A stretch of 64,000 nucleotides of DNA from Vicinamibacteria bacterium. Lineage in GTDB: Bacteria; Acidobacteriota; Vicinamibacteria; Vicinamibacterales; UBA8438. The stretch covers positions 700-64,699 of the forward strand of contig CAUZIB010000011.1 in the NCBI GenBank assembly GCA_963579735.1, read 5' to 3'. The translations under genes and the position numbers were made by a program. The notes below the pieces were generated by a model that made no database searches, was not told the origin of the DNA, and saw nothing but the letters and a program-made list of their open reading frames with translations. Below are positions 28,656-58,614 of the stretch, in pieces. The first letter of the stretch is position 1. The number at the start of each line of letters is the position of its first letter.

Positions 28656-28968
28656 AGATACCTTCGTGGCTATTGGCGTTCTTGCCCGAGCCCGAATGTC
28701 CTCGCGGAGGCCAGTCTGTGCCCGTCCGAGAACGTGCTCTTCGCCGCGGAGACCTCGAACTCGCGGGTCCTTGCGCATAGAATGAGCGCTCGGTGACCCG
28801 ATCGCTGACGTGTCCAACGAGGCCGGTTTCTTGGTCGCACACAACGTCTGGAGGACGCCATTGTCCGTAACAAAGGTCTCTGGGTTTGTCGTGTTGGGTT
28901 TGGTCGTTTGGGGTGGAATCAACAGCCGTGCGCAAGTCGGCGACACGCCTCAGGAATGGCTCGACGCG

Positions 28969-31206: not shown

Positions 31207-31251
31207 GGGTGGGGGGGACACCGAGGTCGTATCGGCGCGCGGGGTAAGCCG

Positions 31252-32523
31252 ATGTATCAGATCGAGGCCTGGGCCGGGTTGCGAAAGGCCCGCCGCGATG
31301 CCAAGGGCACCACGTCATGGTCGAGCGTTCATCGCAACGTCTGGGCGCTTGGCTTTACGAGCTTTTTCACCGACGTATCGTCGGAGATGGTCAGCACCGT
31401 CCTTCCCATATATCTGGTGCTGTATCTTGGTCTCACCCCGTTTCATTACGGTCTCGTCGACGGACTTCAACACGGGGGCACGGCGCTGCTGCGTCTCTTT
31501 GGCGGCGTCGCCGTCGACCGTACACGGCGCTGCAAGGAGCTTGCGATCGCCGGCTATAGCGTGTCCGCATTCTCTCGACTGGGGCTCTTGGCGGCCGGTG
31601 CCTCCTGGCCGCTTGTCGCCACCGTGGTTGCGGTCGACCGCGCGGCCAAGGGCCTGCGCACTGTCCCTCGGGACGTCCTCATTTCGCTGAGCAGCGGCTC
31701 AAGTGCGCTCGCAACATCGTTTGGTGTGCATCGGGCGCTCGATAGCGCGGGGGCGATGCTCGGACCTCTCGTGGCGCTCGGTATTTTGGCGGCCCTCCCA
31801 GAGGCGTTCGATGTGGTGTTTGTGTCGAGCTTTAGCGTGGCGGTCTGCGGAATGGGGGTCATCTGGCTTTTTGTCCGAAACGTCGACCCGGCAGTACTGA
31901 CGGGGGCCGTGTCGCCACCGATCCCGGCCGGACTGCGGAGTGTTCTTCACGACACCGGGCTGTCACGCGTGATGGTCGCGGCGACATTACTCAGCGCGGC
32001 CACGGTCAGCGACGCGTTTCTTTATCTTGTGCTGCAGCGGGAGGTCGGTTTCAATGCCGGGCTGTTTCCGTTGCTCTATGTGGGAACAGCGGGGAGCTAT
32101 CTGCTCTGTGCCGTGCCGGCTGGGCGGCTGGCGGACCGCATCGGACGTCGGACCGCGTTCCTCGGCGGCTATCTCTTTCTCGCTGCGGCGTATGTGGTCG
32201 CGATGCAGTCCGAACCCGGTGTGGGCGCCGTCGCTCTGTGTCTCCTTCTCCTGGGGGGACACTATGCGTTGACCGATGGTGTACTCATGGCACTGACCAG
32301 CGGGTTGTTGCCCCCGGCCCGTCGCGGGACTGGGTTTGCTGTGGTCACCACCGCGACAAGCGTGACCCGTGTGGTCGCATCAGTTGGTTTTGGGGCATTG
32401 TGGACACAGCTCGGGGCGCGCGTCGCTCTCGCTTGGTTCTTGACCGGTTTACTAGTCGCCATCGTCATCACGCGTCTTGTCGTGAGACCGGGCGTCGAGC
32501 GGGGCACCGACACGCGTGGCTGA
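31252..32523 (+). CDS. MFS transporter
   Basis: 423 aa with about 12 hydrophobic segments and MFS-type loops (RLADRIGRR). It lies 45 nt after the DMFase-like gene. Confidence 0.85.
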   Translation: MYQIEAWAGLRKARRDAKGTTSWSSVHRNVWALGFTSFFTDVSSEMVSTVLPIYLVLYLGLTPFHYGLVDGLQHGGTALLRLFGGVAVDRTRRCKELAIAGYSVSAFSRLGLLAAGASWPLVATVVAVDRAAKGLRTVPRDVLISLSSGSSALATSFGVHRALDSAGAMLGPLVALGILAALPEAFDVVFVSSFSVAVCGMGVIWLFVRNVDPAVLTGAVSPPIPAGLRSVLHDTGLSRVMVAATLLSAATVSDAFLYLVLQREVGFNAGLFPLLYVGTAGSYLLCAVPAGRLADRIGRRTAFLGGYLFLAAAYVVAMQSEPGVGAVALCLLLLGGHYALTDGVLMALTSGLLPPARRGTGFAVVTTATSVTRVVASVGFGALWTQLGARVALAWFLTGLLVAIVITRLVVRPGVERGTDTRG

Positions 32524-33721
32524 GTCTCGGAGTCGCCCTGGGGTCGTATTCGCAGGTCTGTGCGTGGCCTGCCTTGTGCTTGCCGTCGGGTACGCTTGGC
32601 ACGCGTCCGTGCGGCGGGCGACCCTCTTTGAAGGTCCTGCGCTTCCAGAGGTCACGAGTCTCGACAGACGGGTCGCCCTGTCGGAAGACCTGCTCGCCGC
32701 GTCAGGAGTAACCGCGTCGTCGAGTGAGTCGGCCCCCCCAGAGGATCTCGGCGCTGGACCGGATGGCGACAGCACTGAATCGCAAGACGTAGTTGCTGAC
32801 GAAAGGACGGGCCTGGACCCACCGTCGGAGCCGATCTTTCTCATACGCCATACGGGCCTCGACGCGAGCTATGGCGTCATGAGTGTGATACGTCTGGACA
32901 ACTCCGGAGAAGCCCGTCGAGGGACGCCGTTGCGATGCGATCGCCTCGATTTTGTGAACGAGCGAGGTGTCTGTCTTGCCACGGACCGCTTCTATACGAC
33001 TCACTCCATCATGGTGTTCGATCGGTCGTTCGAACCGCTGCACACGCTTCCGTTGAATGGGGTTCCGAGCCGGGTGCGTCTCTCTCGCGACGGGCGTCGG
33101 GCCGCGGTCACCGTTTTTGTCTCTGGTCACTCATATGCCGATGAGGGGTTTTCGACAGAGACGAGTCTGATCGATACCTACACGGGCGAACGGCTTGTCA
33201 GGAACTTGGAAGAGTTTGAGGTCCGCCAGGATGGCGCGCGTCTCAGAGCCGTGGATCTGAATTTCTGGGGCGTCACTTTCACCGATGATCACGATCGGTT
33301 CTTGGCGACACTTGGTACCGGCGGCCGAGTCTATCTGGTCGAGGGCAGCGTGTCGGACCGGCGAGTTACGGTGTTGCGCGAAGGCGTCGAGTGCCCCGCC
33401 CTGTCACCCGACCAGACCCGCGTCGCCTTCAAGAGACGGATATCCACCGGCACCGACTTCGCATGGCGTCTTTTTGTATTGGACTTGAGGACCCTTGTCG
33501 AAACCCCGCTGGCCGAGACTCGGCACGTCGACGATCAGGTCGCATGGCTGGACGACGACGTGATCCTGTACGCCCTGCCCGACCCGTCTGCGCCGACACC
33601 TCGCGTTACTGACATATGGCAAGTGCCGGCGGACGGCGGAGGAGAGTCCGAGCTCTTTCTTCGGCACGCATTCTCGCCCGCGGTGTTGCACGCAGACGGT
33701 CAGGACGACCCGGGACACTAA
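32516..33721 (+). CDS. membrane-anchored beta-propeller (TolB/WD40-like) protein
   Basis: GTG start overlapping the MFS stop by 8 nt. N-terminal TM helix (VVFAGLCVACLVLAVGYAW). Repeated strand motifs (RLSRDGRRAAVTVF, LSPDQTRVAFKR, AWRLFVLDL). Confidence 0.5.
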   Translation: MAESRSRPGVVFAGLCVACLVLAVGYAWHASVRRATLFEGPALPEVTSLDRRVALSEDLLAASGVTASSSESAPPEDLGAGPDGDSTESQDVVADERTGLDPPSEPIFLIRHTGLDASYGVMSVIRLDNSGEARRGTPLRCDRLDFVNERGVCLATDRFYTTHSIMVFDRSFEPLHTLPLNGVPSRVRLSRDGRRAAVTVFVSGHSYADEGFSTETSLIDTYTGERLVRNLEEFEVRQDGARLRAVDLNFWGVTFTDDHDRFLATLGTGGRVYLVEGSVSDRRVTVLREGVECPALSPDQTRVAFKRRISTGTDFAWRLFVLDLRTLVETPLAETRHVDDQVAWLDDDVILYALPDPSAPTPRVTDIWQVPADGGGESELFLRHAFSPAVLHADGQDDPGH

Positions 33722-35504: not shown

Positions 35505-37499
35505 GTGAGAACGGTGTTGGGGCTCAGGTCGTCGGGATTGGGGGCGGATATGGTTGGGAATGTTGGGCGCAGCGTCGGCGTCGCTCTCCTGATGGTGCTC
35601 GTGGGGGGCGCCGGCTTGCGGGCGCAGGATGATGTGGACGCCGGCCGCACAGACTGGACCTATTTCGGGGGAACGACGGAGTTCACGCGATATTCGGCTG
35701 CCGATCAGATTGACGCGACCAACGTACGGAATCTGCAGATCCTATGGCGCCGGCCAGCGCTGGCCTCGGTTTTCAGGGAAAGCTTCCCCGAGCTCCGACC
35801 GTCGAATTACCTCCGCTCGACACCAATCTTGATCAATGACGTGCTGTATGCGTCAAATGCGGTTGGTCTGGTGGAAGCCTTTCGTCCGGATACCGGAGAG
35901 ACTGTCTGGATCCAGCCGCCGGTCTCCCAAACGTTGGAGGGCGTCGCCGGTCGTGCCGCCTATGGCGTGGGCTTTTGGACCGATGGGGTCGATGCGCGCA
36001 TCTTGTCGTTACGTCAGCGGCATCTGTACGCACTCGACGCCGCGACCGGGCGACCGATTCCTGGCTTTGGCGAGAATGGGCGCGTCGACCTGACACCAGC
36101 CGGGGCTCGGGTCGCCAACGGTGGCTCCAGTCCGATTGTGGTTGGCGATATCGTGGTGGTCGCCGGTACCGTTGACGGCGCGGGTGATAGCGGTTCGCGG
36201 TGGAGAGGGAGTCTCCCCGAGAACATACGCGGGTATGACGTCCGGACCGGGAACCTCCGGTGGACCTTCCATGTCGTGCCGCGGCCCGGCGAGTTTGGGG
36301 CCGAGAGCTGGGGTGCCGGTTCGTTGACCGCGTCGGGCGACCTGGGGGCGTGGTGTTGTGTGAGCGCCGATCTCGAGCTGGGTTATGTCTATGTTCCGCT
36401 GACCGCGCCGACGGCCGCGTATTACGGCGGTCATCGACCCGGCGACAACTTGTTTTCGAACAGCCTGGTCGCGCTCAATGCCGAGACCGGCGAGCGGGTC
36501 TGGCACTTCCAGATGGTCCATCACGACCTGTGGGAGTACGACACGATTGGTCCGCCGACGCTTGGCGAGGTCACAGTCGCCGGACGTCGGATCAAGACGG
36601 TCATGCAGCCCAGCAAGACCGGATTTCTCTATGTTTTCGACCGCGAGACAGGCGAGCCCGTGTGGCCAATCGAAGAGCGGCCGGTGCCGCCATCCACTGT
36701 TCCCGGTGAGCGTGCGTCGCCGACCCAGCCCTTCCCGACCAAACCGCCGCCGTTCGCTCGTCAGGGCGTGGCTGAGGACGACCTTATCGATTTCACCTCA
36801 GAACTCGCGACCCGCGCCCGCGACGTTGCGAACACGTTCGTCATCGGTCCGATCTTTACACCGCCGTCCGTAGTCGATGAGACGGAAGGTGGGACGCAGG
36901 GAACGCTGGCGTTGCCCGGGTCGTGGGGTTCGGGGAACTGGAACACCGGCGCTTTTGACCCAGAGACCGGCTACTACTACGCGTTTTCGCATGTGGTGCC
37001 GCGGGTCTATCGACTTGCGGATGCCACCGACCAGCCGGCAACCGAAATGGCGTATTACAGTCCCAATCGAGACGCGCCGTATCTGGATGGGATCCCACTC
37101 GTCAAACCGCCCTGGGGTCGGCTCACCGCGATTGATCTCACTCGTGGCGAGCACGCATGGGTCGTCGCCAACGGAGGAGGGATTCGAGACCACACGGCGC
37201 TGCGTGGTTTGGACCTTCCGCGATTGGGCGTGGCGAGTCGGCCGGTCGCTTTGGTGACAAAAACACTTCTTTTTATCGGTGAGGGCGGAAACGTATTTGG
37301 TGGGATCCAGCCGAATATGTGGGGAGCGGGGTTTCGCGCCTACGACAAAGAGGCAGGGTATGTGGTCTGGGAAACGGAGCTGCCGGCGGGGACAACCGGC
37401 GGACCGATGACCTATGTCTTCGAGGGAAAGCAATACATCGTCGTACCGATCGGTGGGAGCGACTACCCAGCGGAGTGGGTTGCGCTGGGACTCCCCTAG
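35505..37499 (+). CDS. soluble PQQ-dependent dehydrogenase, paralogue of 10269-12266
   Basis: [33 protein letters not shown]. It is collinear along its whole length with the 10269-12266 protein (for example [42 protein letters not shown] versus [42 protein letters not shown]). The start may be ATG 35550. Confidence 0.85.
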   Translation: [664 protein letters not shown]

Positions 37500-37638
37500 T
37501 AGGGCGCGGTCCGTGGGGGGACGCCCGGTGAGGCACCCTGGTTGGGTGGGGCTGCGCAGGGCGGGGCCAGGAAGCTGTCTTCGCCAAAGTGGGCCGTGCC
37601 CGGCGATTCGCTATCGGCAATATTGGAGAGCATCAACA

Positions 37639-39060
37639 ATGTCTCGACCTTCTCTGCTCGTAGCCAGATCCCTTCTCCGCGCCACCCGGTGGCGTGTCCT
37701 CGCCGCCGCCACCACCGTCGCGCTTGGCGCCGCGATCACTCCTAGCGTCGTGTTTGGTCAAGAAGGCGAACCAACCGCCGGTATCGATTGGCCGCAATTT
37801 CGCGGGATTGGCGCGCGCGGCTCGGCGGAGGGATGGACCACCCCAGTTCATTGGAATGGTGAGACGGGGGAGAACATCGCATGGAAAGTGCCGGTCTCCG
37901 GTCTCGGTCACTCGAGCCCTGTCGTGTGGGGAGATACCATTTGCGTCACGACGGCGGTCGGTGGTGGTGACGCCCTCTTGAAGGTTGGCTTGTATGGCGA
38001 TATCGAGCCGGTCGTAAACGAGGGAGAGCATCAATGGGTCGTTCTGTGCTTTGACAAGCACACCGGGACTGAGAGGTGGACGGCGGTGGCGACTGCGGGA
38101 GAGCCGATAATCCCACGGCATCCGAAGTCGACGCACGCCAACTCGACCCTCGCCACCGACGGTGAATCGCTTGTTGCCTTGTTTGGGTCGGAGGGTCTGT
38201 TTTCGTATTTTCTCGACTCTGGAGTGCTTCGCTGGCGGAGAGATCTCGGCGTCCTGAGATCAGGATTCTTTGACGTCCCGGAAGCTCTGTGGGGCTATGC
38301 GGCGTCGCCCGTTATCTACGACGGATTGGTCGTCGTACAGGCCGATGTGCTCAACGAGTCCTTTCTGGTCGCCCTCGACGCCGATACGGGTGACGAGTTG
38401 TGGCGCACGTCTCGCGATGACGTCCCGACGTGGAGCACCCCAACCGTCCACGTGGTCGACGGCGTGGCTCAGGTGATCGTGAATGGGTATCGCCACATCG
38501 GCGGATACGACCTCCACTCCGGTCGGGAGGTCTGGAGAATGGAAGGGGGTGGCGACATCCCGGTGCCCACGCCCATTGTCCACGACGGCCTGATCTTTAT
38601 CACCAATGCCCACGGACCTGGCGCTCCGGTCATTGCGGTGAGCGACGGCGCCTCGGGCAACATCTCACTCGCCGCGAACCAAACATCGAATGACCACGTC
38701 GTGTGGAGCCAGCCGCGTGGCGGCGGCTATATGCCGACCCCACTTGTCGTCGATGGATATCTACACGTGCTTCGCGACATTGGCGCGGTGGCTGTTTACG
38801 ATACGACCACCGGTCGCCGACACTACCAAGAGCGGGTTGCCGGTGGGGGCTCTGGATACACCGCCTCGCCTGTGGCCGGCGACGGGAAGCTCTACGTGTC
38901 GAGCGAGGACGGCACCATCCATGTCCTCCGGACGGGGCCGGAGTTTCAGCATCTCGCCGCGAATCCGATGGGCGAGACCCTGATGGCGACCCCCGCCCTA
39001 TCGGAAGGGATGTTGTTTGTGCGGACCCGGGGGCATCTCGTTGCGATAGCGGGCTCGTAG
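37639..39060 (+). CDS. PQQ-like (BamB-type) beta-propeller repeat protein, secreted
   Basis: ATG 37639 with a GGAG RBS and a signal peptide. WPQFRGIGARGS...HSSPVVWGDTICV, with repeated propeller blades. Same family as 46500-47879. Confidence 0.8.
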   Translation: MSRPSLLVARSLLRATRWRVLAAATTVALGAAITPSVVFGQEGEPTAGIDWPQFRGIGARGSAEGWTTPVHWNGETGENIAWKVPVSGLGHSSPVVWGDTICVTTAVGGGDALLKVGLYGDIEPVVNEGEHQWVVLCFDKHTGTERWTAVATAGEPIIPRHPKSTHANSTLATDGESLVALFGSEGLFSYFLDSGVLRWRRDLGVLRSGFFDVPEALWGYAASPVIYDGLVVVQADVLNESFLVALDADTGDELWRTSRDDVPTWSTPTVHVVDGVAQVIVNGYRHIGGYDLHSGREVWRMEGGGDIPVPTPIVHDGLIFITNAHGPGAPVIAVSDGASGNISLAANQTSNDHVVWSQPRGGGYMPTPLVVDGYLHVLRDIGAVAVYDTTTGRRHYQERVAGGGSGYTASPVAGDGKLYVSSEDGTIHVLRTGPEFQHLAANPMGETLMATPALSEGMLFVRTRGHLVAIAGS

Positions 39061-39804: not shown

Positions 39805-40673
39805 TCAGCTTTCACCTCGGCGCTCCGCCGTCCTCGGTATTTTTGGCACGAACGCACAGAATCGGCGCGAGTTGTCGACCAGAATGCGTCTGAGCGTCTC
39901 TTCATCCACACCGGCCCGACGCAGCTTTGGAACAAACACCGTCACGGTCCTCGAAATACCAGGACCGCCGTTTTGCTGCCAATTTGGCCAGGCATTCACG
40001 CCGAAGTCGGCGGAAATCAATAGCCGATTCTCGTAGCCCGCTTCGAGGAGCTTGAGGATCATCGGCACGTTGCGGTCGTCGCTGCCCCCGCCCTGTCGGT
40101 CAAAACCCACAAACGCCCCGCGTCGCGTGATGGCCTTGTGGACCTCCACCTCTGGTGCCACCAGGCTACCGAGATGACCGATTGCGACACGGTCGGGCTG
40201 GACTCCCATCGATTCCAGGATGTCGAGTTGTTCCTCCGCACACTTTCCGTTCTCGGTGGGCGTGAAGATCGGGAGGTTCGTTGCAACGTGCGCTCTGCCG
40301 ACAGCGCGGAATACTTTCCGCTCGTTTGGCGTGATTTCGTCCGAGGTGCCCATTTCTCCAATGGACAGCCCGTGATGGGGTCACGAACCAGTGGCCGGCG
40401 AGGTCGGCCCGCCCGTGACGGCCGGGCAGCCATCCTCGCGTTCCAATCAGCGCCGTGGGTCAAGTGCTCATGAAACAGCGTCGTCCCGCCACCGAGCCTC
40501 GCGGGGGACAGGTCCTCGAGGACTGTCCGAATGACCGCCCCGTCGGGAAACTCTGGCCCTTGCGCGCCAAAGACGGTGTGTGGCGATCGCGCCACGGCCG
40601 CGCCTGCGCCGAGAACCCTCAGTGCTTCTCGGCGGGTGACGGCTGGCAATCGACACATCACTTCGTCAGACAT
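39805..40673 (-). pseudogene. phosphotriesterase-family (amidohydrolase) protein with Tat leader, disrupted by a frameshift and apparent internal deletion
   Basis: ORF 40059-40673 begins with a Tat leader (VTRREALRVLGAGAAV) and TLFHEHL (HxH metal site), then becomes nonsense. ORF 39805-40353 in another frame gives LSIGEMGTSDEITPNERKVFRAVGRAHVATNLPIF...VAIGHL...LLISADFG. Only about 38 codons separate HEHL from IGEMG, against roughly 100 in intact family members as I recall them. A metal-binding His position reads TPT. Confidence 0.6.
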
Positions 40674-40930
40674 GACCCTCTTTCGATCGGTTCACGACAC
40701 CCGATACTCATCAGCCGGGTTAAGACGTGTCCAAACACCAAACAGCGGCCCAGGCCGTGTTGCTCAACCCCCTGTGACTCTCCCGCTCGAACACAAGATG
40801 TGATGCCGTGCACCAGACACCGAGTTCAAGGCGTAGCTGCGCGGCCCTTGGCACGCCCGTCGGTCCTTGACGGTTGTGACCGGGCAGGCCTACACTTCGA
40901 CCACTGTTGGTACTGCTTCGAGGAGGGTAG

Positions 40931-43405
40931 ATGCGAAGACCGTTACGCGCCACACCGTGCGGATACATCGTCGCGGTCGTCGCATTAGGGTATGCGCAAC
41001 TTGCGTTTGCGCAGGGCTCTCCCACGGCGCTTCCCGCAGCGCCCTCTGATCCCCAAGTTCTGCTCGACGAGTATTGCGTCGCCTGCCACAACGAGCGGAC
41101 CCTGACCGCCGGCCTCTCGCTGGAGATGCGCGATGTTCACGACATCGGCGACGGTGCCGAGATCTGGGAGAAAGTGGTAGGCAAGCTTCGGAGTGGCGCG
41201 ATGCCGCCGCTCGGTCGCCCGCGTCCTGACGAGGCTACCCTGGACGGCTTTGTGACGTGGCTCGAAACAGAGCTCGACGGTGAGGCTGCCCGTCATCCGA
41301 ACCCTGGCCGAACCGCGGATCACCGCCTGAACCGGGTGGAGTATGGCAATGCCATTCGTGACCTCCTGGCGCTGGAGATTGATCCGGCGGCGTTACTCCC
41401 GGCCGATGAATCGGATCATGGCTTTGACAACATCGCCGAAGTGCTGTCAATGTCGCCCACGCTGCTTGAGCGATATCTGTTCGCGGCGAGGAAAATCAGC
41501 CGACTGGCGATCGGGGATCCGACGGCCGGCCCCGCCGTCGAGACCTTTAACCTTTCGCGTGGGTTGCGACAAGACCAGCGCATGAGTGAGGACCTCCCGT
41601 ATGGCACGCGTGGAGGCGCGTCGATACGGCACTATTTTCCTCTGGACGGCGAGTATGTCGTAAAGATCCGACTGGGTCGCAACTACACCAACTCGCAGAT
41701 TCGGGCGATCAAGACCCGGGAAGAGATCGACGTGCTGCTCGACGGCGCGCCCGTGACCAGATTCACAATCGGCGGGCAATGTGGTGACGCCGACCCGCAA
41801 GACCCTGCGTGCATCGGGTCCGGCATCTATCGGACGTCCGCCTACCAGCTCACTGCCGATGAAGCCCTCGAGGTCCGGTTTCCCGCCGAGGCCGGGATGC
41901 ATGCGCTCGGCGTGGCGTTTGTAAGGAAGAGCGTATTGACGGAAGGGCCGGCTCCCGCCTTGCTCCCACCACGACACACGAGCTCGACATATCAGGCGCC
42001 ACGCATGGATATCGACTACGTGCGTCTGGAAGGACCGTTCAACCCCACCGGTCCTGGGGACACCGAGAGCCGTCGCCGAATTTTTGTGTGTCACCCGGCC
42101 GAGATGACCGGGGGCTCCGCGGCGGATATAGACGACGAGACCTGTGCGCGCGAGATTCTCACGACGCTGGCTGGTCGTGCCTATCGTCGCCCGTCGACAG
42201 ATGCAGATGTCGACACGCTGCTCCAGTTCTACGATGCGGGTCGTGACGCTGTCGGCGGAACCTTTGAGCGGGGCATTCAAGAGGCGCTCACGCGGCTACT
42301 CGTCTCACCCCATTTCTTGTTTCGTACTGAGCGTGATCCGCAGGAGGCGACCGCCGCCGGCGTGTATCGAATCAGTGACTATGAGTTGGCGTCGCGTCTA
42401 TCTTTCTTCCTGTGGAGCAGTATTCCGGATGAGGCCTTGCTCGACGCCGCGAAACGCGGGACTTTGGGTGATCCGGAGGGCCTGGCCGCACAGGTAAAGC
42501 GGATGCTGGCCGACCCGCGGGCCTCGGCGCTGACACAGAACTTTGGTGGACAGTGGTTATTTACACGGAATCTCAAGGCCGTCGACCCCGACGCCAGCGC
42601 GTTTCCCGACTTTGACGACAACCTGCGCGCCGCGTTCCAGCGCGAGACGGAGCTGTTTCTCGAGAACCAAATGCGCGACGACCGTCCGCTCGGAGAGCTG
42701 TTGACCGCGCGGCACACATTTGTCAACGAGCGTCTTGCCCGCTTCTATGGGATCCCGAATGTGTATGGAGCGCACTTTCGGCGAGCGGAACATCAAGACC
42801 CGAACCGAGCGGGGCTGTTGGGACAGGGCAGCGTGCTCACCGTGACGTCGTATGCAACTCGGACATCGCCAGTGATTCGAGGCAAGTATCTTCTCGACAA
42901 TATCCTCGGGGCGCCGCCGCCGCCTCCTCCTGCGAATGTACCGGCACTCGAGGACTCGGACCAGGCCGGTCACCCGCTTGCGTCGATGCGCGATCGGATG
43001 GCATCGCATCGGCGGAACGCCGCGTGCGCGAGCTGTCATGCCAGGATGGACCCGCTGGGGTTTGCCTTGGAAAACTTTGACGGGATTGGACGATGGCGCA
43101 CGATGGACGGTGCGTCCGTGATTGATGCGTCGGGCGTGCTTCCGGATGGGACCACGTTTGGCGGACCCGCCGAGTTCAGGGAGGCCCTTCTGGCTCATCG
43201 TGAGGAATTTGTCAGGACCTTTACGGAAAAGCTTCTAACGTATGCGCTCGGCCGCGCAGTGCAGCACTATGACAAACCGACCATCCGGTCGATCGTGCGG
43301 GACGCCGCCTCTAGCGACCACCGATGGTCGTCGCTGGTGCTCGGTATCGTAAAGAGTCGGCCGTTTCAGATGCGAACGGTTCAGGACGCTGAGACGGGAT
43401 TGTAG
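40931..43405 (+). CDS. DUF1592/DUF1588/DUF1587/DUF1585/DUF1595-type ('PSD/PSCyt3') protein with two CxxCH motifs (copy 1)
   Basis: AGGAGGG RBS and a signal peptide. N-terminal YCVACHN...GAMPP, C-terminal CASCHARMDPLGFALENFDGIGRWR, and internal blocks (LNRVEYGNAIRDLL, FGGQWLFTRNL, LTARHTFVNERLARFYGIP, TSPVIRGKYL) that are typical of this family. Confidence 0.85.
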   Translation: MRRPLRATPCGYIVAVVALGYAQLAFAQGSPTALPAAPSDPQVLLDEYCVACHNERTLTAGLSLEMRDVHDIGDGAEIWEKVVGKLRSGAMPPLGRPRPDEATLDGFVTWLETELDGEAARHPNPGRTADHRLNRVEYGNAIRDLLALEIDPAALLPADESDHGFDNIAEVLSMSPTLLERYLFAARKISRLAIGDPTAGPAVETFNLSRGLRQDQRMSEDLPYGTRGGASIRHYFPLDGEYVVKIRLGRNYTNSQIRAIKTREEIDVLLDGAPVTRFTIGGQCGDADPQDPACIGSGIYRTSAYQLTADEALEVRFPAEAGMHALGVAFVRKSVLTEGPAPALLPPRHTSSTYQAPRMDIDYVRLEGPFNPTGPGDTESRRRIFVCHPAEMTGGSAADIDDETCAREILTTLAGRAYRRPSTDADVDTLLQFYDAGRDAVGGTFERGIQEALTRLLVSPHFLFRTERDPQEATAAGVYRISDYELASRLSFFLWSSIPDEALLDAAKRGTLGDPEGLAAQVKRMLADPRASALTQNFGGQWLFTRNLKAVDPDASAFPDFDDNLRAAFQRETELFLENQMRDDRPLGELLTARHTFVNERLARFYGIPNVYGAHFRRAEHQDPNRAGLLGQGSVLTVTSYATRTSPVIRGKYLLDNILGAPPPPPPANVPALEDSDQAGHPLASMRDRMASHRRNAACASCHARMDPLGFALENFDGIGRWRTMDGASVIDASGVLPDGTTFGGPAEFREALLAHREEFVRTFTEKLLTYALGRAVQHYDKPTIRSIVRDAASSDHRWSSLVLGIVKSRPFQMRTVQDAETGL

Positions 43406-43434
43406 AACGCGAGACTCGAGATAGGAGTGTCTGA

Positions 43435-44793
43435 ATGGTGATTACAAAGAAGTGCCTGTCGCGTCGCACCCTGCTGCGCGGTTTGGGTGCGAGTATCGCG
43501 CTCCCGTTGCTCGACGGAATGGTGCCAGCACTCGCTGCGATGCGTAACACGGCCGCGCGTCCCGTCAAACGGCTCGGTGCGGTGTATGTGCCAAACGGCA
43601 TGAGTATGGCTCGCTGGTTGCCGACGGCCGAAGGCCGCTTGGAGCTGACGCCGATCCTCTCGCCGCTCGCGCCCGTGCAAGACCAGGTGACGGTCTTGAG
43701 CGGGATGGCGAACCAGGAGGCAAGGCAATGGCTCGATGAAGGGGATGGCGACCATTCGCGGTGTCAAGCCGCCTATCTCACCGGCGCCCACGCCAAAAAA
43801 GCCTCGGGGGCCAACACAACCCTCGAGGTTGGCATATCGATGGACCAGCTCGCGGCCCGGGAGCTGCGAGAGGACACGCAGCTCGCCTCGCTCGAGCTGT
43901 CTTTGGAAGCCAATGAGCTGGTGGGGCAATGCGAAGACGGGTATGGGTGCGCCTATAGCGCCACTCTTGCGTGGCGGGACGCGAACACGCCGTTGCCGAT
44001 GGAGACAAACCCGCGTGCCGCCTTCGAGCATCTCTTTGGAGCCGTGGGTAGCACGGGTCGCGAAGCTCGGCTCCGCGCCCTGCAGTCGGACAAGAGCATT
44101 CTCGATTCGGTCAGTGAGGAGCTGACAAAGTTGCAGCGCGTGCTCGGTCGAGGCGACCGCTCAAAGCTGGGCGGTTATCTCGATTCGGTGCGGGATATCG
44201 AGCGGCGTATCCAGATTGCCGAAACACAAGCTGACCGCGAGCTTCCCGAAGTCGTGCAGCCGGCGGGTATTCCGGCCACCTTCGAGGACTACGCCAGCTT
44301 GATGTTTGACCTGATGTTTGTGGCGTATCAGGCTGATCTGACCCGAGTTGCAACGTTCTTGATTGGCCGGGAGAAGAGCGTCCGAACCTACCCAGAGATC
44401 GGTGTCGCGGAACCGCACCACCCTGTTTCTCATCACCGACAGAGTCCAGAACAGCTCGAGAAGCTGGCAAAGATCAATACCTTCCATATGCAGATCTTTG
44501 GGCGTTTCCTGGAACGGCTCCGGTCGACCAATGATGGCGACGGCTCGTTGCTGGACCATTCGATGATCATCTATGGTGCGGGGATGGGTAATAGCAACGC
44601 GCACGACCCACTGGATCTTCCGATCGTCCTGGCGGGTGGAGGCGGGGGCACGATCACTGGGGGACGGCACGTCCGGCTGCCAGAGGGGACGCCGCTGTCC
44701 AACATGCATCTGACGGTGCTCGAGAACATGGGGATTCCGGCCGAACGGCTTGGCGATAGCACGGGCGGGTTGCCAGTGCTGTCCGAGGTCTAG
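43435..44793 (+). CDS. DUF1552 family protein with Tat-type leader (copy 1)
   Basis: MVITKKCLSRRTLLRGLGASIALPLLDGMVPA leader. It is collinear with 57259-58614 (VAYQADLTRVATF, HHPVSHH, GDGSLLDHSMIIYG). Confidence 0.85.
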   Translation: MVITKKCLSRRTLLRGLGASIALPLLDGMVPALAAMRNTAARPVKRLGAVYVPNGMSMARWLPTAEGRLELTPILSPLAPVQDQVTVLSGMANQEARQWLDEGDGDHSRCQAAYLTGAHAKKASGANTTLEVGISMDQLAARELREDTQLASLELSLEANELVGQCEDGYGCAYSATLAWRDANTPLPMETNPRAAFEHLFGAVGSTGREARLRALQSDKSILDSVSEELTKLQRVLGRGDRSKLGGYLDSVRDIERRIQIAETQADRELPEVVQPAGIPATFEDYASLMFDLMFVAYQADLTRVATFLIGREKSVRTYPEIGVAEPHHPVSHHRQSPEQLEKLAKINTFHMQIFGRFLERLRSTNDGDGSLLDHSMIIYGAGMGNSNAHDPLDLPIVLAGGGGGTITGGRHVRLPEGTPLSNMHLTVLENMGIPAERLGDSTGGLPVLSEV

Positions 44794-44807
44794 TTGAGAG
44801 GCGTGAG

Positions 44808-46280
44808 ATGCATACCATCCAAAGAATGACCGGGGTCGCCGTCTTCATCGTTGTCGCCGCGGTTCAGAGTCTTGCGGTGGCGGCGCCCGACGTCCGGCTG
44901 GCCACGGCCGCCAAGAATCATGACGCCGAGTCTGTCCGGACGTTGTTGACCGAGGGCGTCGCCGTGAATGCCACGCCGCCCGATGGCGTCACCGCACTGC
45001 ACTGGGCGGTTCAATGGAACCACGAGGCGATGGCTGACCTCCTGATCGGCGCGGGTGCCGCCGTGAATGCGGCGGATCACTATCAAGTGACACCGCTCGC
45101 GCTCGCCTGTACCAACGGGAGCGCTGGGATGGTTCACCGTTTACTGAAGGCTGGCGCGGATGTGAACGCCACCCAGGCAACCGGGGAAACCGCGTTGATG
45201 ACATGCGCGCGGTCGGGCGTGGTTGGCGCCGTGAGACCGCTTCTCGCGCGCGCGGTCGATGTGAACGCAGCAGAGGTCGCGCACGGACAGACCGCGCTCA
45301 TGTGGGCCACGTGGGAAGGTCATACGGAGGTCGTGCGCGCCTTGCTCGAGCATGGTGCCGATGTCGGGGCGCGGACGACGACCGGATACACGGCATTGTT
45401 GTTGGCGGCGCGTGAGGGTTATCAGGAGACAACTCAGACACTCCTCAATGCCGGCGCGGACATAAATGACACTGCGGAAGATGGGACGACAGCGTTGGTC
45501 GTTGCGACCATCCGACGGCACACGTCATACGCCGAGTACTTGCTCGACCACGGGGCAGACCCTAATCTGGGGCCCGGGTTTACGCCGCTGCACTGGGCGG
45601 CCGGCGAGTGGGACACCGAGTTGAACGACCTGTCCAATGGCGTCGCCGAGGGCAACGACTGGAGCGCATTCGGAGGACTACGCGCCCCGGATAGACTAGA
45701 CATGGTGCGGTTGCTCCTCGGTCACGGCGCGGATCCGAACCAGCGGACCGACCGAACTCCGGGGTTTGGTATCGCGGTGAAGGGCCATCTGGGCAACATC
45801 ACCGGCGGTACGCCGTTTCTGATTGCGGCGCGGGCGAACGATGTCGCCGTGATGCGCGAGTTGCTCACGCACGGCGCTGATCCGCTGATCCCGACGCGTA
45901 ACGGGACGACACCGCTCATGATGGCGGCCGGGATTGGCCACTCGCCAGGTATCACCCGTTCGAGCGAGGACGAGGCGCTCGACGCGGTCTATCTGTGCGT
46001 CGAGGTCGGCGCCGATGTCACCGCAGTCAACGACTCTGGCGACACGGCTCTGCATGGTGCCGCGTGGCGGGAACGAGCAGATTCGATTGTGCAGTTTCTC
46101 GTGGACCGTGGCGCTGAGATGGACGTAAAGAACAACCGAGACTGGACCCCGCTCGTCATCGCCGAAGGGATCCATACCGGGGGAAACTTCATCAAGTCGG
46201 ATACGACGTCCGCGTTGCTTCTCGAGCTCGGCGCGACCCCCAGCCCGCTTGATATCTCGAGAGAGCCACAGGCGAGATAG
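44808..46280 (+). CDS. secreted ankyrin-repeat protein (copy 1)
   Basis: Signal peptide (MTGVAVFIVVAAVQSLAVAAP) followed by multiple ANK repeats (G.TALHWA...LL..GA.VN). It lies 14 nt after the DUF1552 gene. Confidence 0.9.
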   Translation: MHTIQRMTGVAVFIVVAAVQSLAVAAPDVRLATAAKNHDAESVRTLLTEGVAVNATPPDGVTALHWAVQWNHEAMADLLIGAGAAVNAADHYQVTPLALACTNGSAGMVHRLLKAGADVNATQATGETALMTCARSGVVGAVRPLLARAVDVNAAEVAHGQTALMWATWEGHTEVVRALLEHGADVGARTTTGYTALLLAAREGYQETTQTLLNAGADINDTAEDGTTALVVATIRRHTSYAEYLLDHGADPNLGPGFTPLHWAAGEWDTELNDLSNGVAEGNDWSAFGGLRAPDRLDMVRLLLGHGADPNQRTDRTPGFGIAVKGHLGNITGGTPFLIAARANDVAVMRELLTHGADPLIPTRNGTTPLMMAAGIGHSPGITRSSEDEALDAVYLCVEVGADVTAVNDSGDTALHGAAWRERADSIVQFLVDRGAEMDVKNNRDWTPLVIAEGIHTGGNFIKSDTTSALLLELGATPSPLDISREPQAR

Positions 46281-46499: not shown

Positions 46500-47879
46500 T
46501 CAGTAGTCGTCCGCCGCCAACGAGACGCGGATGATTTCGGCGTTGTTCCGGTGCACGATGTGCTTGTTGGCGTAGGCCGGGTGCGTCCAGTTGATGGCGC
46601 GTTGGAATCGATCGGGACGGCCGCGGACGGCCGCGCCGGAGCTGCCGTCCGGCTCAATCAACAGGGTCCGGTCGAGTTCCACATAGCCTTCCGGCGTGAA
46701 CTGCGCGATCATCAAATACCCATCGTCATTGTTGACGAAGTATCGGTCGCCGTGCCGCACGATGAACGCGGCGCCCCAACGTGCTTGCGCCGTCATTTCG
46801 TCACTCATCCAGACCCGTTCGCCGGTCCGCGCGTTGAGGGCGCGTAGTTCTCCGTAGCTCCCCACCCCGTAGATATAGTCGCCGATGATGAGCGGGGTCG
46901 TGATGAGCGAGTGCAACCCGTCGGTCTGGTCCGGGAGCTCGCTCCGACTCGTGCCTTGCCACAGCATCGACGCGGTCGGGCGGTCCTGACTGAGTCGCAT
47001 CATCATGGACCCGTTGTAGAACTGCGAGACCACTAGGTAGTCCCCGCTGAGGACCGGGGTCGCCACGGACAGACCGGAGCCCGCCTCCCAGTCCTGGCTC
47101 CAGTAGACATCGCCGGTGTCTGGGTCGAGCGAGACGAGCGCCGCCGCGTGCCAGACAATCAGCTGCCGCGCGCCACCCGCTTCATAAATGACCGGCTGGC
47201 CGTAGCCCATCTCCCCGACCACTGTCACCGCGCGCCAAATCTCGTCACCGGTCTGTTTGTCGAAGGCCATCACGAGGGCATCCGGCTCGCCGCCGACCAC
47301 GGTGATCAGCTTGTCCCCGTCCACGAGAGGGGCGCTGGCGACTCCCCACGTCGGGATACTGGTGTTGTAGTCCGCGACGTAGTCCTTCTCCCAGATGACC
47401 GTGCCCGTCGCGACGTCCAGACAGAAGAGACGCCCGGTGGCACCGACGACATAGACTCGGTCGCCATCGACCGTCGGTGTGGCGCGGGGACCCACCGCAT
47501 ACGACGCCATCAGCATGCGGTAGCTCGTCGGCCACTCATGCGTCCAGAGCACCGCCCCGGTCTCTTCGTCGAGGGCTACCGCCCGTTCAATCCCGTCGAG
47601 CGTCCGTGACTCGGGATCCTCCTGCCAATCAACGACAAACACCCGACCGTCCGCGACCGCCGGCCCCGAATAGCCCGAACGAAGCGGTGTACGCCACGTC
47701 ACGTCGAGTCCATCCTCAGGAAACGACTCGATGATGCCGTCTTCGTGCCAGACCCCCAACCGGTCAGTTCCGCGCCACTGGGCCCAGTCGTCCGCCCCGA
47801 GCGCCGTGGCCCCGAGCCATATTGCCAGTGCGGCCGTCGTGCACCACGTCGTCCAGATCGTCGATTTCACAGATGTCAT
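46500..47879 (-). CDS. PQQ-like (BamB-type) beta-propeller repeat protein, secreted
   Basis: Signal peptide. DDWAQWRGTDRLGVW...YSGPAVADGRVFVVD, with repeated blade motifs. Same family as 37639-39060. Confidence 0.8.
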   Translation of the reverse strand: MTSVKSTIWTTWCTTAALAIWLGATALGADDWAQWRGTDRLGVWHEDGIIESFPEDGLDVTWRTPLRSGYSGPAVADGRVFVVDWQEDPESRTLDGIERAVALDEETGAVLWTHEWPTSYRMLMASYAVGPRATPTVDGDRVYVVGATGRLFCLDVATGTVIWEKDYVADYNTSIPTWGVASAPLVDGDKLITVVGGEPDALVMAFDKQTGDEIWRAVTVVGEMGYGQPVIYEAGGARQLIVWHAAALVSLDPDTGDVYWSQDWEAGSGLSVATPVLSGDYLVVSQFYNGSMMMRLSQDRPTASMLWQGTSRSELPDQTDGLHSLITTPLIIGDYIYGVGSYGELRALNARTGERVWMSDEMTAQARWGAAFIVRHGDRYFVNNDDGYLMIAQFTPEGYVELDRTLLIEPDGSSGAAVRGRPDRFQRAINWTHPAYANKHIVHRNNAEIIRVSLAADDY

Positions 47880-53116: not shown

Positions 53117-53315
53117 AGTCGTCCTCCTCGCCGCAGATGTGGTGGCGGCTCGTACTTCCCGAGCCACAGTCTATTGGATCGTCCCGTAGGGCGCGGAACC
53201 ATCCTCCGGGGCGTTGGCACTCGTCCACGTGCGGAATCGGCCTGGAACATGCCGCCCTCCTACTATACGATTCAATCGGACGGTTCGCGGTCAGGTCCTT
53301 GACTCCGGAAAGCCT

Positions 53316-54917
53316 ATGAGACGATTTACTCACCCGCTGACGGCGGCCGTCGTCATTACTGTCGGATGGCCGGGGATGGCCACGACATCTGCTCAGCCCG
53401 CATCTGTCTCCACCCACGATCTCCGTCTTGTCGAAGCGGCCGAACGACAGGAGATGAGTGCGGTGCAATCGCTGCTCGCGCAAGGGGTGGGCGTGGATGC
53501 TCCGCAGGCGGACGGCGCGACGGCCCTGGCCTGGACGGTGCATTGGGACGACCGGCCGATGACCGACCTGCTGATCGCGGCCGGTGCCGACGTGAATCTT
53601 TCCAACGACCTCGGGGTCACGGCCCTTATGCTCGCCTGCGCAAACGGGAGCGCAGGGATGGTCGAGACGTTGCTCCAGGCCGGCGCCGATCCAAATTTGG
53701 CCCGCTCAACGGGAGAGACGCCGTTGATGATTGCATCGCGCACAGGCAATGTCTTGGTGGTGAGGCAGCTGGTCGCGAGGGGTGCCAACATCGACGCGGC
53801 GACGCACGGGGGGCACACGGCACTCATGTGGGCGGCGGCCGAACAGCATGCTGGGATCGTGACCGTCCTGGCGGAGGTCGGTGCGAATGTGCACGCACGC
53901 ACCGCCGTCGTTACGCCACCGTCGAGAACGCGCGTTCGAGAGGCCACCGTGCTCAGCCGATACGAAGCCGTCAATCCGGCCGACATACCGCGAGATGGGG
54001 ATAGCGACCCACCTCGCGCCCAAGGTGGTTTCACGCCGTTGCTGCACGCGGTGCTGGCCGGAGACCTCGCGACAGTGGGGGTACTGCTGGCCGCCGGCGC
54101 AGATGTAGACGAAGCCGCACCCGACGGCGTCACCGCTCTGATGTTGGCTCTGACCAAGCGTCACGAGACGGTCGCGCTGTACCTGATTGAACGAGGTGCG
54201 GACCCTCGGTCGGCCGAGACGGGCTATACCGCCCTCCACCTCGCTAGTGCGACTGGGCAGCATGCCGCCGCGCGCGCCCTGCTCGCGAGCGGGGCGGACC
54301 CGAACCAACGGATGGAGATGCCCCAGCGTTTGACCACCGCATTCGAGATCGGCGTCTTCTCATCGCCGGGATCGGGCCGTCTCACCCAGCGGGGATCGTC
54401 GCCGTTTCTGGTGGCGGCCAAGTCTGCCGATGCGGTCATGATGGAGCTGCTGGCTGAGGGGGGCGCCGACCCCATGCTCACCACCGACGACGGAACGACC
54501 GCTCTGATGCTGGCGGCCGGTCTTGGCAAGCGGGCGGCGTCGGACATCACCTATTACGAATGGAACGAAGCGAAAGCCGTCGCGGCGCTCAGTGTCGGGC
54601 TTGAGTTGGGGCTTGATCTCGACGCGACGAATGACCATGGCGAGACGGCGCTGCACGCGGCGGCCTATCATAATGCCAACGACGTCATCGAGTTTCTGGT
54701 GAGCGCCGGTGCGAACATCGACGTAACGAACGCGGCGGAGCAAACACCGTTGCGGGTCGCCGAAGGCCACCTGATCTGCTGTACGACCTATGTGCGCCAC
54801 CTAGAGGCGGCGACGCGTCTGCGTGAGCTAGGTGCGGACCGCACCGCCGGTATGCAGTTGACGTTTGGGCTGACGAACTTCGGTGACCAGGACGAGTCGG
54901 GCGAGCCAGAGGAATGA
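53316..54917 (+). CDS. secreted ankyrin-repeat protein (copy 2)
   Basis: ATG 53316 and signal peptide (MRRFTHPLTAAVVITVGWPGMATTSAQP). It is collinear with copy 1 (GVTALMLACANGSAGMVETLLQAGADPN versus VTPLALACTNGSAGMVHRLLKAGADVN). The stop overlaps the next start (ATGA). Confidence 0.9.
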   Translation: MRRFTHPLTAAVVITVGWPGMATTSAQPASVSTHDLRLVEAAERQEMSAVQSLLAQGVGVDAPQADGATALAWTVHWDDRPMTDLLIAAGADVNLSNDLGVTALMLACANGSAGMVETLLQAGADPNLARSTGETPLMIASRTGNVLVVRQLVARGANIDAATHGGHTALMWAAAEQHAGIVTVLAEVGANVHARTAVVTPPSRTRVREATVLSRYEAVNPADIPRDGDSDPPRAQGGFTPLLHAVLAGDLATVGVLLAAGADVDEAAPDGVTALMLALTKRHETVALYLIERGADPRSAETGYTALHLASATGQHAAARALLASGADPNQRMEMPQRLTTAFEIGVFSSPGSGRLTQRGSSPFLVAAKSADAVMMELLAEGGADPMLTTDDGTTALMLAAGLGKRAASDITYYEWNEAKAVAALSVGLELGLDLDATNDHGETALHAAAYHNANDVIEFLVSAGANIDVTNAAEQTPLRVAEGHLICCTTYVRHLEAATRLRELGADRTAGMQLTFGLTNFGDQDESGEPEE

Positions 54918-57262: not shown

Positions 57263-58614
57263 TCATCACGAAGAAGTGCGTGCCTCGGCGAACGGTCTTG
57301 CGCGGTTTGGGAGCGTCTCTGGCGTTGCCACTGCTGGACGGGATGGTGCCGGCGTTGTCCGCGACCCGCACCACGGCCGCCCACCCGGTCCGCCGTCTGG
57401 GGGCCATTTATGTTCCCAATGGGGTCGAGATGCGCTCGTGGACGCCGACCGCGGGCGGCACGTCGCTCGAGCTCACGCCAGTGCTGGCCCCCCTCGACCC
57501 GGTGCGTCATCAGGTCAACGTACTCTCGGGCTTGGCCGATAAGGTCGCGATTCCTCGTGACGGCGAAGGCGTGGGCGACCACGCTCGCGCGGCATCCACT
57601 TGGCTGACCGGCATGCATGTGAAGAAGACCGAGGGACCGGATATCCGGGCTGGTATCTCCGTCGACCAGATCGCGGCGCAGACACTCGGTAACGACACAC
57701 AGCTTGCATCCCTGGAGCTGGCGATCGACTCGGTCGAGGTGCTGGGCGCCTGCGACCAAGGGTATAGCTGCGCGTATGCGAACACGATCGCCTGGCGCAC
57801 GCCAACCACGCCGCTCCCGATGGAGAACAACCCCCGCGCGGTGTTCGAGCGCTTGTTTGGCGCAGCCGACAGCACGGACATACGGTCTCGGCTGGCACGG
57901 ATTCGTCAGGACCGCAGCATTCTCGACTTCGTGACCGACGAGGCGAACGAGCTTCGGCACACCCTCGGCGCGGGTGACCAAATCAAACTTGCGCAGTATC
58001 TCGACGCCGTGCGCGACACCGAGCGACGTATCCAGAAGGCCGAGGAGCAGAGCGACCGCGAAATGCCGGTCGTGGACCAACCGGTTGGTATTCCCGGCAC
58101 GTTCGAAGAGCACTGTCGTCTCATGTTTGACCTGCTGGCCCTCGCTTATCAAACCGACCTGACACGGGTGAGCACGTTCATGTTTGGCAAAGAGGTCAGT
58201 GGTCGCTCGTTTCCGGAGATTGGTGTCCCCGGCGGACACCACGGGTATTCGCATCACCAGAATGATCCTGAGAATCTGGCGATGCTGGCCAAGATCAACA
58301 CGCACCACATTCGGCAGTTCGGTTACTTTCTCGAAAAGCTCGATGCGACCCCGGACGGGGATGGATCGCTGCTTGACCACTCGCTCTTCATCTATGGTTC
58401 CGGTATCAGCGACGGCAACCTGCACTTCCACCTCGACCTGCCGACGCTGCTGGCGGGAGGCGGAGGCGGGCACGTCAAGGGCGGCCGGCATCTCCGTTAT
58501 CCAACCGAGACCCCGCTCGCGAACCTCCACGTCTCAGTGCTCGACAAGCTTGGGCTGCCAGTGGAGACGTTCGGCGATAGCACCGGTGCGCTGGGCTACC
58601 TATCTGATCTCTAG
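57259..58614 (+). CDS. DUF1552 family protein with Tat-type leader (copy 2)
   Basis: MIITKKCVPRRTVLRGLGASLALPLLDGMVPA leader. ATGA overlap with the upstream gene. It is collinear with 43435-44793. Confidence 0.85.
   Translation: MIITKKCVPRRTVLRGLGASLALPLLDGMVPALSATRTTAAHPVRRLGAIYVPNGVEMRSWTPTAGGTSLELTPVLAPLDPVRHQVNVLSGLADKVAIPRDGEGVGDHARAASTWLTGMHVKKTEGPDIRAGISVDQIAAQTLGNDTQLASLELAIDSVEVLGACDQGYSCAYANTIAWRTPTTPLPMENNPRAVFERLFGAADSTDIRSRLARIRQDRSILDFVTDEANELRHTLGAGDQIKLAQYLDAVRDTERRIQKAEEQSDREMPVVDQPVGIPGTFEEHCRLMFDLLALAYQTDLTRVSTFMFGKEVSGRSFPEIGVPGGHHGYSHHQNDPENLAMLAKINTHHIRQFGYFLEKLDATPDGDGSLLDHSLFIYGSGISDGNLHFHLDLPTLLAGGGGGHVKGGRHLRYPTETPLANLHVSVLDKLGLPVETFGDSTGALGYLSDL

Follow-up and report, generated by a model that had tools for sequence, protein, structure and literature searches.

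A known but uncharacterised bacterial gene pair, a large DUF1592-type c-type cytochrome and a DUF1552 protein, is accompanied in one clade by a third gene, which encodes an exported ankyrin-repeat (ANK) protein, and the three genes form a genuine conserved module, solidly established across about 130 loci in several phyla of soil bacteria. The module is described here from a 64,000-nucleotide stretch of a Vicinamibacteria bacterium (order Vicinamibacterales, Acidobacteriota; contig CAUZIB010000011.1, positions 700 to 64,699 of the forward strand), the whole of which we call the window. Our preferred interpretation, to which we give a probability of roughly 0.55, is that the module encodes an exported redox system in which the ANK solenoid has the dedicated task of binding another component, probably the cytochrome. 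Judged from its sequences, the ANK-linked module would be a new form of the known pair, with a proposed mechanism; full-text searches of a literature library found no paper linking ankyrin to DUF1552 or DUF1592 and none assigning these families a function.

Reciprocal linkage of the three genes

The linkage was assessed with two scans, one centred on each end of the association. The DUF1552-centred scan took one genome per species and, by DUF1552 alignment, gave 80 loci at 52–87% identity, mostly from Vicinamibacterales and otherwise from Bryobacterales, Longimicrobiales (Gemmatimonadota) and Gammaproteobacteria including Pseudohongiella; open reading frames (ORFs) in the loci were called in six frames and searched with the window proteins. 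Counting as evaluable the 68 cytochrome–DUF1552 pairs flanked on each side by 1.8 kb of sequence or more, an ANK gene was found within 700 bp of 64 (94%), while the roughly 1 Mb of flanking DNA held only five isolated ANK genes (about 0.5 per 100 kb). The ANK-centred scan was made in metagenomes and seeded with two signatures of the ANK family, G[FV]TALHWA and ALMWAA, giving 80 loci at 40–74% identity. The pair adjoined the ANK gene in 68 of these; in the remaining 12 the sequence stops no more than 1.5 kb from that gene, so that all 68 evaluable loci carry the pair. The first-pass annotation, made from the letters of the window, would have been refuted had ANK genes not been enriched beside DUF1592/DUF1552 pairs in other genomes; the enrichment is seen in both directions.

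The position of the ANK gene is less constant than its presence. Among the 64 linked pairs it lies downstream on the same strand in 28, upstream on the same strand in 13 and upstream in divergent orientation in 23, and it varies even within single DUF1552 clades with the adjacency kept, which indicates that the neighbourhood has been retained through rearrangements and not merely inherited. Three of the four pairs that do not have an adjacent ANK gene (loci L046, L067 and L075) carry a full pyrroloquinoline quinone (PQQ) dehydrogenase gene exactly in the ANK position, that of L046 at 11397–13868; for the fourth, an ANK gene lies at a distance of 3.9 kb. An adjacency of no functional meaning, in which ANK genes are common and have been carried along by descent, could appeal to the predominance of a single order, Vicinamibacterales, among the loci sampled. 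It is, however, contradicted by the reciprocal and near-complete linkage, by the very low background density of ANK genes, by the survival of the adjacency through repeated changes of position and strand, and by the spread of the module across Acidobacteriota, Gemmatimonadota, Gammaproteobacteria and Alphaproteobacteria, and we give it practically no credence.

The three proteins have also diverged together. In 75 triplets, the pairwise distances of cytochrome and DUF1552 correlate with r = 0.90, those of cytochrome and ANK with 0.895 and those of DUF1552 and ANK with 0.82; for the last, the only combination permuted, none of 500 label permutations reached the observed value. With DUF1552 controlled, the partial correlation between ANK and cytochrome is 0.62, and with the cytochrome controlled, that between ANK and DUF1552 is 0.10. 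The divergence of the ANK protein thus tracks the cytochrome rather than DUF1552, a weak pointer to the cytochrome as its binding target.

The link has a clear limit. Eight more distant pairs, with DUF1552 proteins of 25–31% identity and of PVC (Planctomycetes–Verrucomicrobia–Chlamydiae), Bacteroidota or Sphingobium type, were examined and none had an ANK gene; the sources were a Planctomyces plasmid, Chondrinema (Bacteroidota), Sphingobium, Novosphingobium RL4, Aquisphaera, a Verrucomicrobia metagenome contig and Pirellulales. An ANK partner is thus the mark of one clade, with DUF1552 identities of at least 45%, and not of the whole family. A cultured Novosphingobium (sp. KACC 22771), whose DUF1552 is 45% identical to that of the window, carries the triplet. 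Two expectations of the first-pass annotation need to be narrowed in this light. The dedicated ankyrin partner that it thought undescribed is real and appears in no paper that we found, but is confined to this one clade. The pairs are indeed uncharacterised, as it held, but not restricted to Planctomycetes-like genomes: the window itself is from Vicinamibacterales, and the cytochrome family comprises 41,629 representative clusters.

Layout of the two copies in the window

The three genes of the first copy are separated by gaps of 29 nt (cytochrome to DUF1552) and 14 nt (DUF1552 to ANK), and a purine-rich ribosome-binding stretch precedes each start codon, GAGGAGGG at the first and the Shine-Dalgarno-like AGGAG and GAGAGG at the second and third. 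The candidate promoter lies 35 nt 5' of the first gene and is weak, with one such site against 1.3 expected by chance. A second, diverged copy occupies positions 53316–58614, about 7 kb downstream, in the order ANK, cytochrome, DUF1552, its genes joined by 4-nt ATGA overlaps at both junctions; the likely start of its ANK gene is the ATG at 53316 within ORF 53214–54917, and its cytochrome shows the same Pfam pattern as that of the first copy (Table 1). The label "copy 1" given to the triplet in the first-pass annotation was thus apt, and a renewed ORF call and a Pfam search placed the three ORFs, the gaps, the motifs and the export signals where it had described them, all three proteins matching the families that it had named (DUF1592-type, DUF1552, ANK). 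Against NCBIfam, neither the cytochrome nor the DUF1552 protein matched any family and the ANK protein gave only generic, sub-threshold ANK matches, and an Rfam scan for a riboswitch that might hint at a cofactor or substrate matched no family.

Table 1. Module genes and other features of the window
Feature	Position	Strand	Basis
DUF1592-type exported c-type cytochrome, predicted dihaem, 824 aa (copy 1)	40931–43405	+	Pfam, motif invariance, AlphaFold2 model
DUF1552 (HXXSHH) protein, 452 aa (copy 1)	43435–44793	+	Pfam, invariant columns, AlphaFold2 model
Exported ankyrin-repeat (ANK) protein, 490 aa (copy 1)	44808–46280	+	Pfam, orthologues, adjacency counts
First haem-binding motif CVACH, residues 49–53	41075–41089	+	Alignment conservation
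Second haem-binding motif CASCH, residues 699–703, PSCyt3 domain	43025–43039	+	Alignment conservation
Sigma-70-like promoter candidate (TTGACG, 18-nt spacer, TACACT)	40867–40896	+	Consensus match
ANK protein (copy 2)	53316–54917	+	39% identical to copy 1 ANK, full length; signal-like N-terminus
DUF1592-type cytochrome, predicted dihaem, 782 aa (copy 2)	54914–57262	+	51% identical to copy 1
DUF1552 protein, 451 aa (copy 2)	57259–58614	+	59% identical to copy 1
PQQ-type dehydrogenase/propeller gene	4717–6402
PQQ-type dehydrogenase/propeller gene	10269–12290	−
PQQ-type dehydrogenase/propeller gene	35505–37499
PQQ-type dehydrogenase/propeller gene	37414–39060
PQQ-type dehydrogenase/propeller gene	46500–47879	−

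The cytochrome and its variable central slot

The cytochrome carries the Pfam domains PSD3, PSD5, PSD4 (DUF1592), PSCyt3 (DUF1588) and PSD2 in this order (PF07626, PF07637, PF07631, PF07627 and PF07624), with scores of 78–161 bits against cut-offs of 23–34. Ahead of these are matches at threshold level to PSCyt1 and Cytochrome_CBB3 (residues 37–111) and, at residues 1–27, a Sec signal (N-terminus MRRPLRATPCGYIVAVVALGYAQLAFA/QG). One CxxCH motif belongs to a class-I cytochrome c domain at approximately residues 40–120, with C49xxC52H53 and M91; the other is part of the PSCyt3 domain, with H693 and C699xxC702H703, and sits inside the MDPLGFALENFD block. In a comparison of the family profile with the PDB, cytochrome c subunits of bc1 complexes were matched over residues 42–117 (QcrC with an E value of 7e-4). 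The first-pass annotation had expected both motifs to be conserved in orthologues, and they are: conservation is 100% in the 81 homologues from the loci and both motifs are invariant across 150 representatives of at most 50% mutual identity, the C, C and H columns of the first being filled in 142 of 151 aligned sequences, with gaps in the remaining nine, and the second being present in 141–142 of the 151. M91 (in GAMPP) and H693 are invariant in the homologues as well and are likely the distal haem ligands.

Even Sphingobium-type proteins whose DUF1552 partners are only 25% identical to that of the window retain the PSCyt3 CxxCH. In relatives, the first cytochrome module can be fused, can be encoded by a gene of its own (Planctomyces) or can give way to adjoining genes for cytochrome c' and cytochrome b561 (Sphingobium). 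This persistence of the one and interchangeability of the other argue for an electron-transfer role. On the two Sphingobium plasmids (L088, 5307–9498; L089, 5328–9518), the pair is reduced to a 551-residue DUF1592 protein with one CxxCH followed by DUF1552, and the c' and b561 genes lie directly 3' of it, which suggests a wiring of the pair to the membrane electron-transport chain.

The AlphaFold2 model of the cytochrome is of high confidence (predicted local distance difference test score, pLDDT, 89.6; predicted TM-score 0.90) and contains a β-sandwich at about residues 200–375, between PSD3 and PSD5. A Foldseek search of the PDB gave weak relatives of this domain among the carbohydrate-binding modules (CBMs) of type CBM35, the carbohydrate-binding domains of BcsB and C1q-type jelly rolls; nothing in the model beyond the β-sandwich was matched in that search, and the helical PSD domains are without a solved counterpart there.

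The same central slot between PSD3 and PSD5 is where the homologues mainly vary. In the window it holds the single β-sandwich, in some homologues CBM60 modules, and in PVC homologues all of their 550–800 extra residues; variants were seen in proteins P0327, P0326, P0330, P0370 and P0310 and at loci L091, L092 and L095, and in P0327 an N-terminal WD40 propeller is fused in place of the cytochrome c domain. A fusion with an ANK domain, of the Rosetta-stone kind, was not among the ten longest cytochrome homologues, which showed one WD40 fusion and several CBM60 inserts instead.

The DUF1552 protein

The middle gene of the first copy matches DUF1552/HXXSHH (PF07586) with 317 bits against a cut-off of 30, the eponymous motif being HHPVSHH at residues 328–334. 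Its leader reads SRRTLLRGLG, with the arginine pair at residues 10–11, and runs into a conserved ALPLLDGM; the pair is invariant in 37 DUF1552 proteins of the ANK-linked clade and nearly so family-wide. The Pfam model TAT_signal, for the twin-arginine translocation (Tat) pathway, reaches 12.5 bits against a cut-off of 22.7, and a permissive Pfam scan (E values up to 10) returned only this sub-threshold hit besides PF07586. Family-invariant residues in relatives down to 25% identity are R10, D137, R304, H329, D374 and H390, with H107 nearly invariant, a pattern of conserved His, Asp and Arg residues that is compatible with a metal site.

The AlphaFold2 model of the protein has a pLDDT of 67. 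Nearly all of the 50 Foldseek matches to the PDB listed for it, with E values from 2e-4 to about 8e-2, probabilities of about 0.5–1.0 and TM-scores of about 0.38, belong to the alkaline-phosphatase superfamily and none indicates another fold; the strong ones are all sulfatases, LtaS, YejM or proteins of the cofactor-independent phosphoglycerate mutase (iPGM) type. Such a predicted alkaline-phosphatase-like core, combined with the invariant residues, suggests that DUF1552 is a metal-dependent catalytic subunit. As a reasoned inference, we take the protein to be a Tat-exported metalloenzyme built on that core.

Directly after the hydrophobic stretch of the leader, a motif LP[LFWY][LM][DE] (window 43435–43540; homologues in L085–L090) is conserved even at 25% overall identity, which is unusual for a cleavable signal and could point to an anchor that stays in place or to a site recognised by a chaperone. 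At about residues 165–172 (window 43927–43950), a loop with a pair of cysteines, GQCEDGYGCAYS, has C166 and C172 invariant in the three ANK-linked proteins aligned and is absent from the four more distant aligned proteins that have no ANK partner. Loci L036, L038 and L050 (approximately positions 10001–11320) contain a DUF1552 about 56% identical to that of the window beside which neither a DUF1592 nor an ANK gene could be recognised; the 2 kb upstream of the one in L036 hold an ORF with no Pfam match, adjoining ABC-transporter genes.

The ankyrin protein and the proposed function

The ANK protein scores about 240 bits with the ANK families of Pfam and has about 11–12 repeats, behind a Sec signal at residues 1–25 (N-terminus MHTIQRMTGVAVFIVVAAVQSLAVA/AP); the conservation profile shows two non-repeat inserts, at about residues 265–300 and 376–392. 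Its orthologues, about 489 residues long and 63–98% identical, fall into more than 120 clusters, their source names being those of Acidobacteria proteins, and the two orthologue loci inspected have the same gene order of cytochrome, DUF1552 and ANK. An N-terminus that resembles a signal, with positive charge, a hydrophobic stretch and an AxA-type site, is present in 87 of 90 ANK homologues.

In the mechanism that we propose, the three proteins would act outside the cytoplasmic membrane and be inherited as a unit. The Sec-exported protein of about 800 residues would bind two covalent c-type haems, one in the N-terminal class-I domain and one in the PSCyt3 domain, and the β-sandwich between them, resembling a carbohydrate-binding module, may bind a target. 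DUF1552 would be exported in the folded state via Tat and, with its α/β core of alkaline-phosphatase or sulfatase type, would provide the metal-dependent catalytic subunit; electrons could then pass via the two haems between the respiratory chain and either a substrate or a PQQ dehydrogenase encoded nearby. The Sec-exported solenoid of about 12 repeats would bind this pair, most probably the cytochrome, as a structural adaptor or assembly factor. Haem loading, Tat export and metal binding are thus predicted properties of the proteins, and the direction of electron flow, the substrate and the role of the ANK protein are presumptive.

Several points weigh against this picture. The contact of the ANK protein with the cytochrome or with DUF1552 is itself putative, and the co-divergence on which the choice of target leans is confounded by the common species phylogeny and by similar evolutionary rates. 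Divergent transcription of the ANK gene, seen at 23 of the 64 linked pairs, would be less usual for a stoichiometric subunit, and the distant pairs that do without ANK imply that it is not essential to the basic chemistry. As for the other two proteins, a Pfam search with the β-sandwich alone gave no significant CBM match in sequence, the DUF1552 model is only moderately confident and its TM-scores with the structures found are low, and DUF1552 profiles (A1 and the broader A4) compared with the PDB gave only noise and no link to a solved structure. Finally, an association with PQQ dehydrogenases is seen in only about 15% of the modules.

What the ANK protein does for its partners is where the readings part. 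The tight translational coupling in both copies of the window speaks for a subunit. An accessory factor is favoured by the 23 divergent arrangements and by the fact that distant clades dispense with ANK. By analogy with AnkB, a precedent for a periplasmic ankyrin protein that supports a haem enzyme (KatB), the ANK protein might be a transient, dedicated maturation chaperone in the periplasm, holding the apocytochrome or the partner exported by Tat while haem or metal is inserted or assembly proceeds, and having no part in the working enzyme. A chaperone would be exported like its clients, as the ANK protein is; the one ANK gene per paralogous pair, co-diverging with the cytochrome, is consistent with this role; divergent transcription permits a separate dosage, and the absence of ANK from distant pairs is what an accessory factor would lead one to expect. 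On the other hand, about 12 repeats make the protein far larger than AnkB, and the 4-nt overlaps of copy 2, together with the 14-nt gap of copy 1, suggest equimolar synthesis. We consider the chaperone a serious but tentative alternative, clearly less probable than our preferred reading.

The opposite extreme would make ANK an obligate third subunit in an unrecognised class of periplasmic respiratory enzymes, with DUF1552 as a redox metalloprotein of alkaline-phosphatase fold, the dihaem cytochrome as the carrier, and the ANK solenoid replacing the large central cassette of the PVC cytochromes as a platform that recruits substrates or partners such as a PQQ dehydrogenase. We think this unlikely. 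If true, bacterial energy metabolism would gain its first complex with an ankyrin scaffold, and redox chemistry in DUF1552 would be the first redox function in the alkaline-phosphatase superfamily.

Periplasmic ankyrin proteins that serve self-protection occur in predatory bacteria, and by analogy the ANK protein might be an inhibitor or immunity-type protein that keeps a harmful periplasmic enzyme inactive. One-to-one pairing and co-divergence would also fit an enzyme and its inhibitor. Around the modules, however, we saw no toxin-like domain, secretion system or mobile-element context, the many paralogous modules per genome are unlike toxin–immunity loci, and the partners resemble respiratory or redox proteins, which together make this reading highly improbable.

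Association with PQQ-dependent dehydrogenases

Genes for PQQ dehydrogenases are concentrated around the module. Across the 80 loci, their density is 8.5 per 100 kb at distances of up to 1 kb from a module and 0.3–1.3 per 100 kb farther away, an enrichment of about tenfold, although PQQ genes are abundant in these genomes and the background estimate is based on few genes. One might thus see the module mainly as an electron acceptor and docking site for PQQ-dependent dehydrogenases, with the ANK protein, or a propeller substituting for it, recruiting the quinoprotein dehydrogenase to the cytochrome. Loci L001–L004 show the order pair, ANK, PQQ dehydrogenase, and the three ANK-less pairs mentioned above have the dehydrogenase in place of ANK. 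The window, too, has five PQQ-type genes, two of them shortly before copy 1 and one shortly after it, and its PQQ dehydrogenases do not have a CxxCH of their own. Yet only about 15% of the modules have a PQQ dehydrogenase within 1 kb, and the docking role leaves DUF1552 with nothing to do, so that as the main purpose of the module we regard it as quite unlikely. Given the local density of PQQ genes and the five in the window, a link to quinoprotein dehydrogenases is a live secondary hypothesis beside the exported redox system that we favour.

Two further observations concern these genes. The enzymes of the window were also considered as lanthanide-type PQQ dehydrogenases, a line that was dropped since the WD[YF]xG motif is absent from them. 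ORF 37414–39060 shares 85 nt with the end of the PQQ dehydrogenase gene before it, and its initial 75 residues have a non-coding appearance; translation probably begins at the Met at about 37639 (MSRPSLLVARSLL..., signal-like).

Surrounding DNA

Just upstream of the module, a gene of the phosphotriesterase family (window 39805–40673, minus strand) is split over two frames, being either a pseudogene or the product of an assembly indel; the N-terminal part, with an RR-type leader and HEH, is in ORF 40059–40673 and positions 131–296 of the phosphotriesterase family in ORF 39805–40353. Amide and ester hydrolases are found around the module at 2457–4022 and 15231–17027 (both on the minus strand), 28810–33721 and 61051–62352, the set comprising an amidase, an amidohydrolase, an N,N-dimethylformamidase-like protein beside a major facilitator superfamily transporter, and a formamidase/acetamidase. 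Such richness in amide and ester hydrolases hints at a catabolic region.

Significance and comparison with known systems

The PSCyt/PSD cytochromes, like the DUF1552 or DUF1501 proteins that accompany them, make up very large families, abundant in soil and aquatic bacteria. That one widespread clade should have its own exported ankyrin protein turns an obscure pair into a defined three-component unit that can be co-expressed and purified, with the ANK partner as a handle for pull-downs and complex prediction and with Novosphingobium sp. KACC 22771 as a cultured host. Discussion of ankyrin repeats in bacteria mostly concerns effectors directed at eukaryotic hosts; the large, conserved family described here instead partners the extracytoplasmic redox proteins of the bacterium itself.

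Of the systems that invite comparison, the pairs of PSCyt1/PSCyt2/PSD1 proteins (DUF1549/DUF1553) with DUF1501 are similar in that a large exported PSCyt/PSD protein is encoded beside a partner gene, DUF1501 being Tat-exported and sulfatase-like, and they adjoin DUF1552 pairs in L091–L094. They consist of other Pfam families, however; none was seen in the window as far as it was scanned, and we know of no ANK partner for them.

AnkB of Pseudomonas aeruginosa is a small periplasmic ankyrin protein of about four repeats, encoded beside katB and needed for full catalase activity. It shares with the module the placing of a gene for an exported ANK protein beside that of a haem protein. The ANK protein of the window, in contrast, has 490 residues and about 12 repeats, its neighbours in about 130 loci are a predicted dihaem cytochrome and DUF1552 and not a catalase, and the two proteins have no sequence relationship beyond generic ANK repeats. 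With its large size and without a catalase neighbour, it is not of the AnkB type.

Among proteins with experimental data of any kind, the nearest is Cbp2D of Cellvibrio japonicus, with the architecture CBM2-X158-FN3-X183-DUF1587-X132, whose X183 cytochrome domain reduces lytic polysaccharide monooxygenases (PMC8981238). Like the cytochrome of the module, Cbp2D is a secreted multidomain protein that combines a c-type cytochrome with DUF1587 (PSD3) and a module of carbohydrate-binding type, and close homologues of the window cytochrome carry CBM60. The window protein, however, has no CBM2, X158 (YceI-like) or FN3 domain, a Pfam search showing neither CBM2 nor YceI, and shares only the PSD3 and cytochrome c modules; a DUF1552 or ANK partner is not reported for Cbp2D.

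Closest in composition are the PSCyt3/PSD and DUF1552 pairs of Planctomycetes and Verrucomicrobia, reportedly treated by Studholme in 2004. In the full-text searches, the pairing appeared only as an unexplained co-occurrence, with the function given as unknown (He et al. 2017, PMC5615132). The PVC pairs (DUF1587-DUF1595-DUF1592-DUF1588-DUF1585 with DUF1552) have the same set and order of Pfam domains, two CxxCH motifs and an adjacent DUF1552 with an RR leader. Their cytochromes are 1360–1600 residues long, compared with 780–830 in the module, and the residues that the shorter proteins do not have all fall between PSD3 and PSD5. Those examined have a GntR regulator upstream and no ANK gene, whereas the module described here has a dedicated, exported ankyrin protein of its own.

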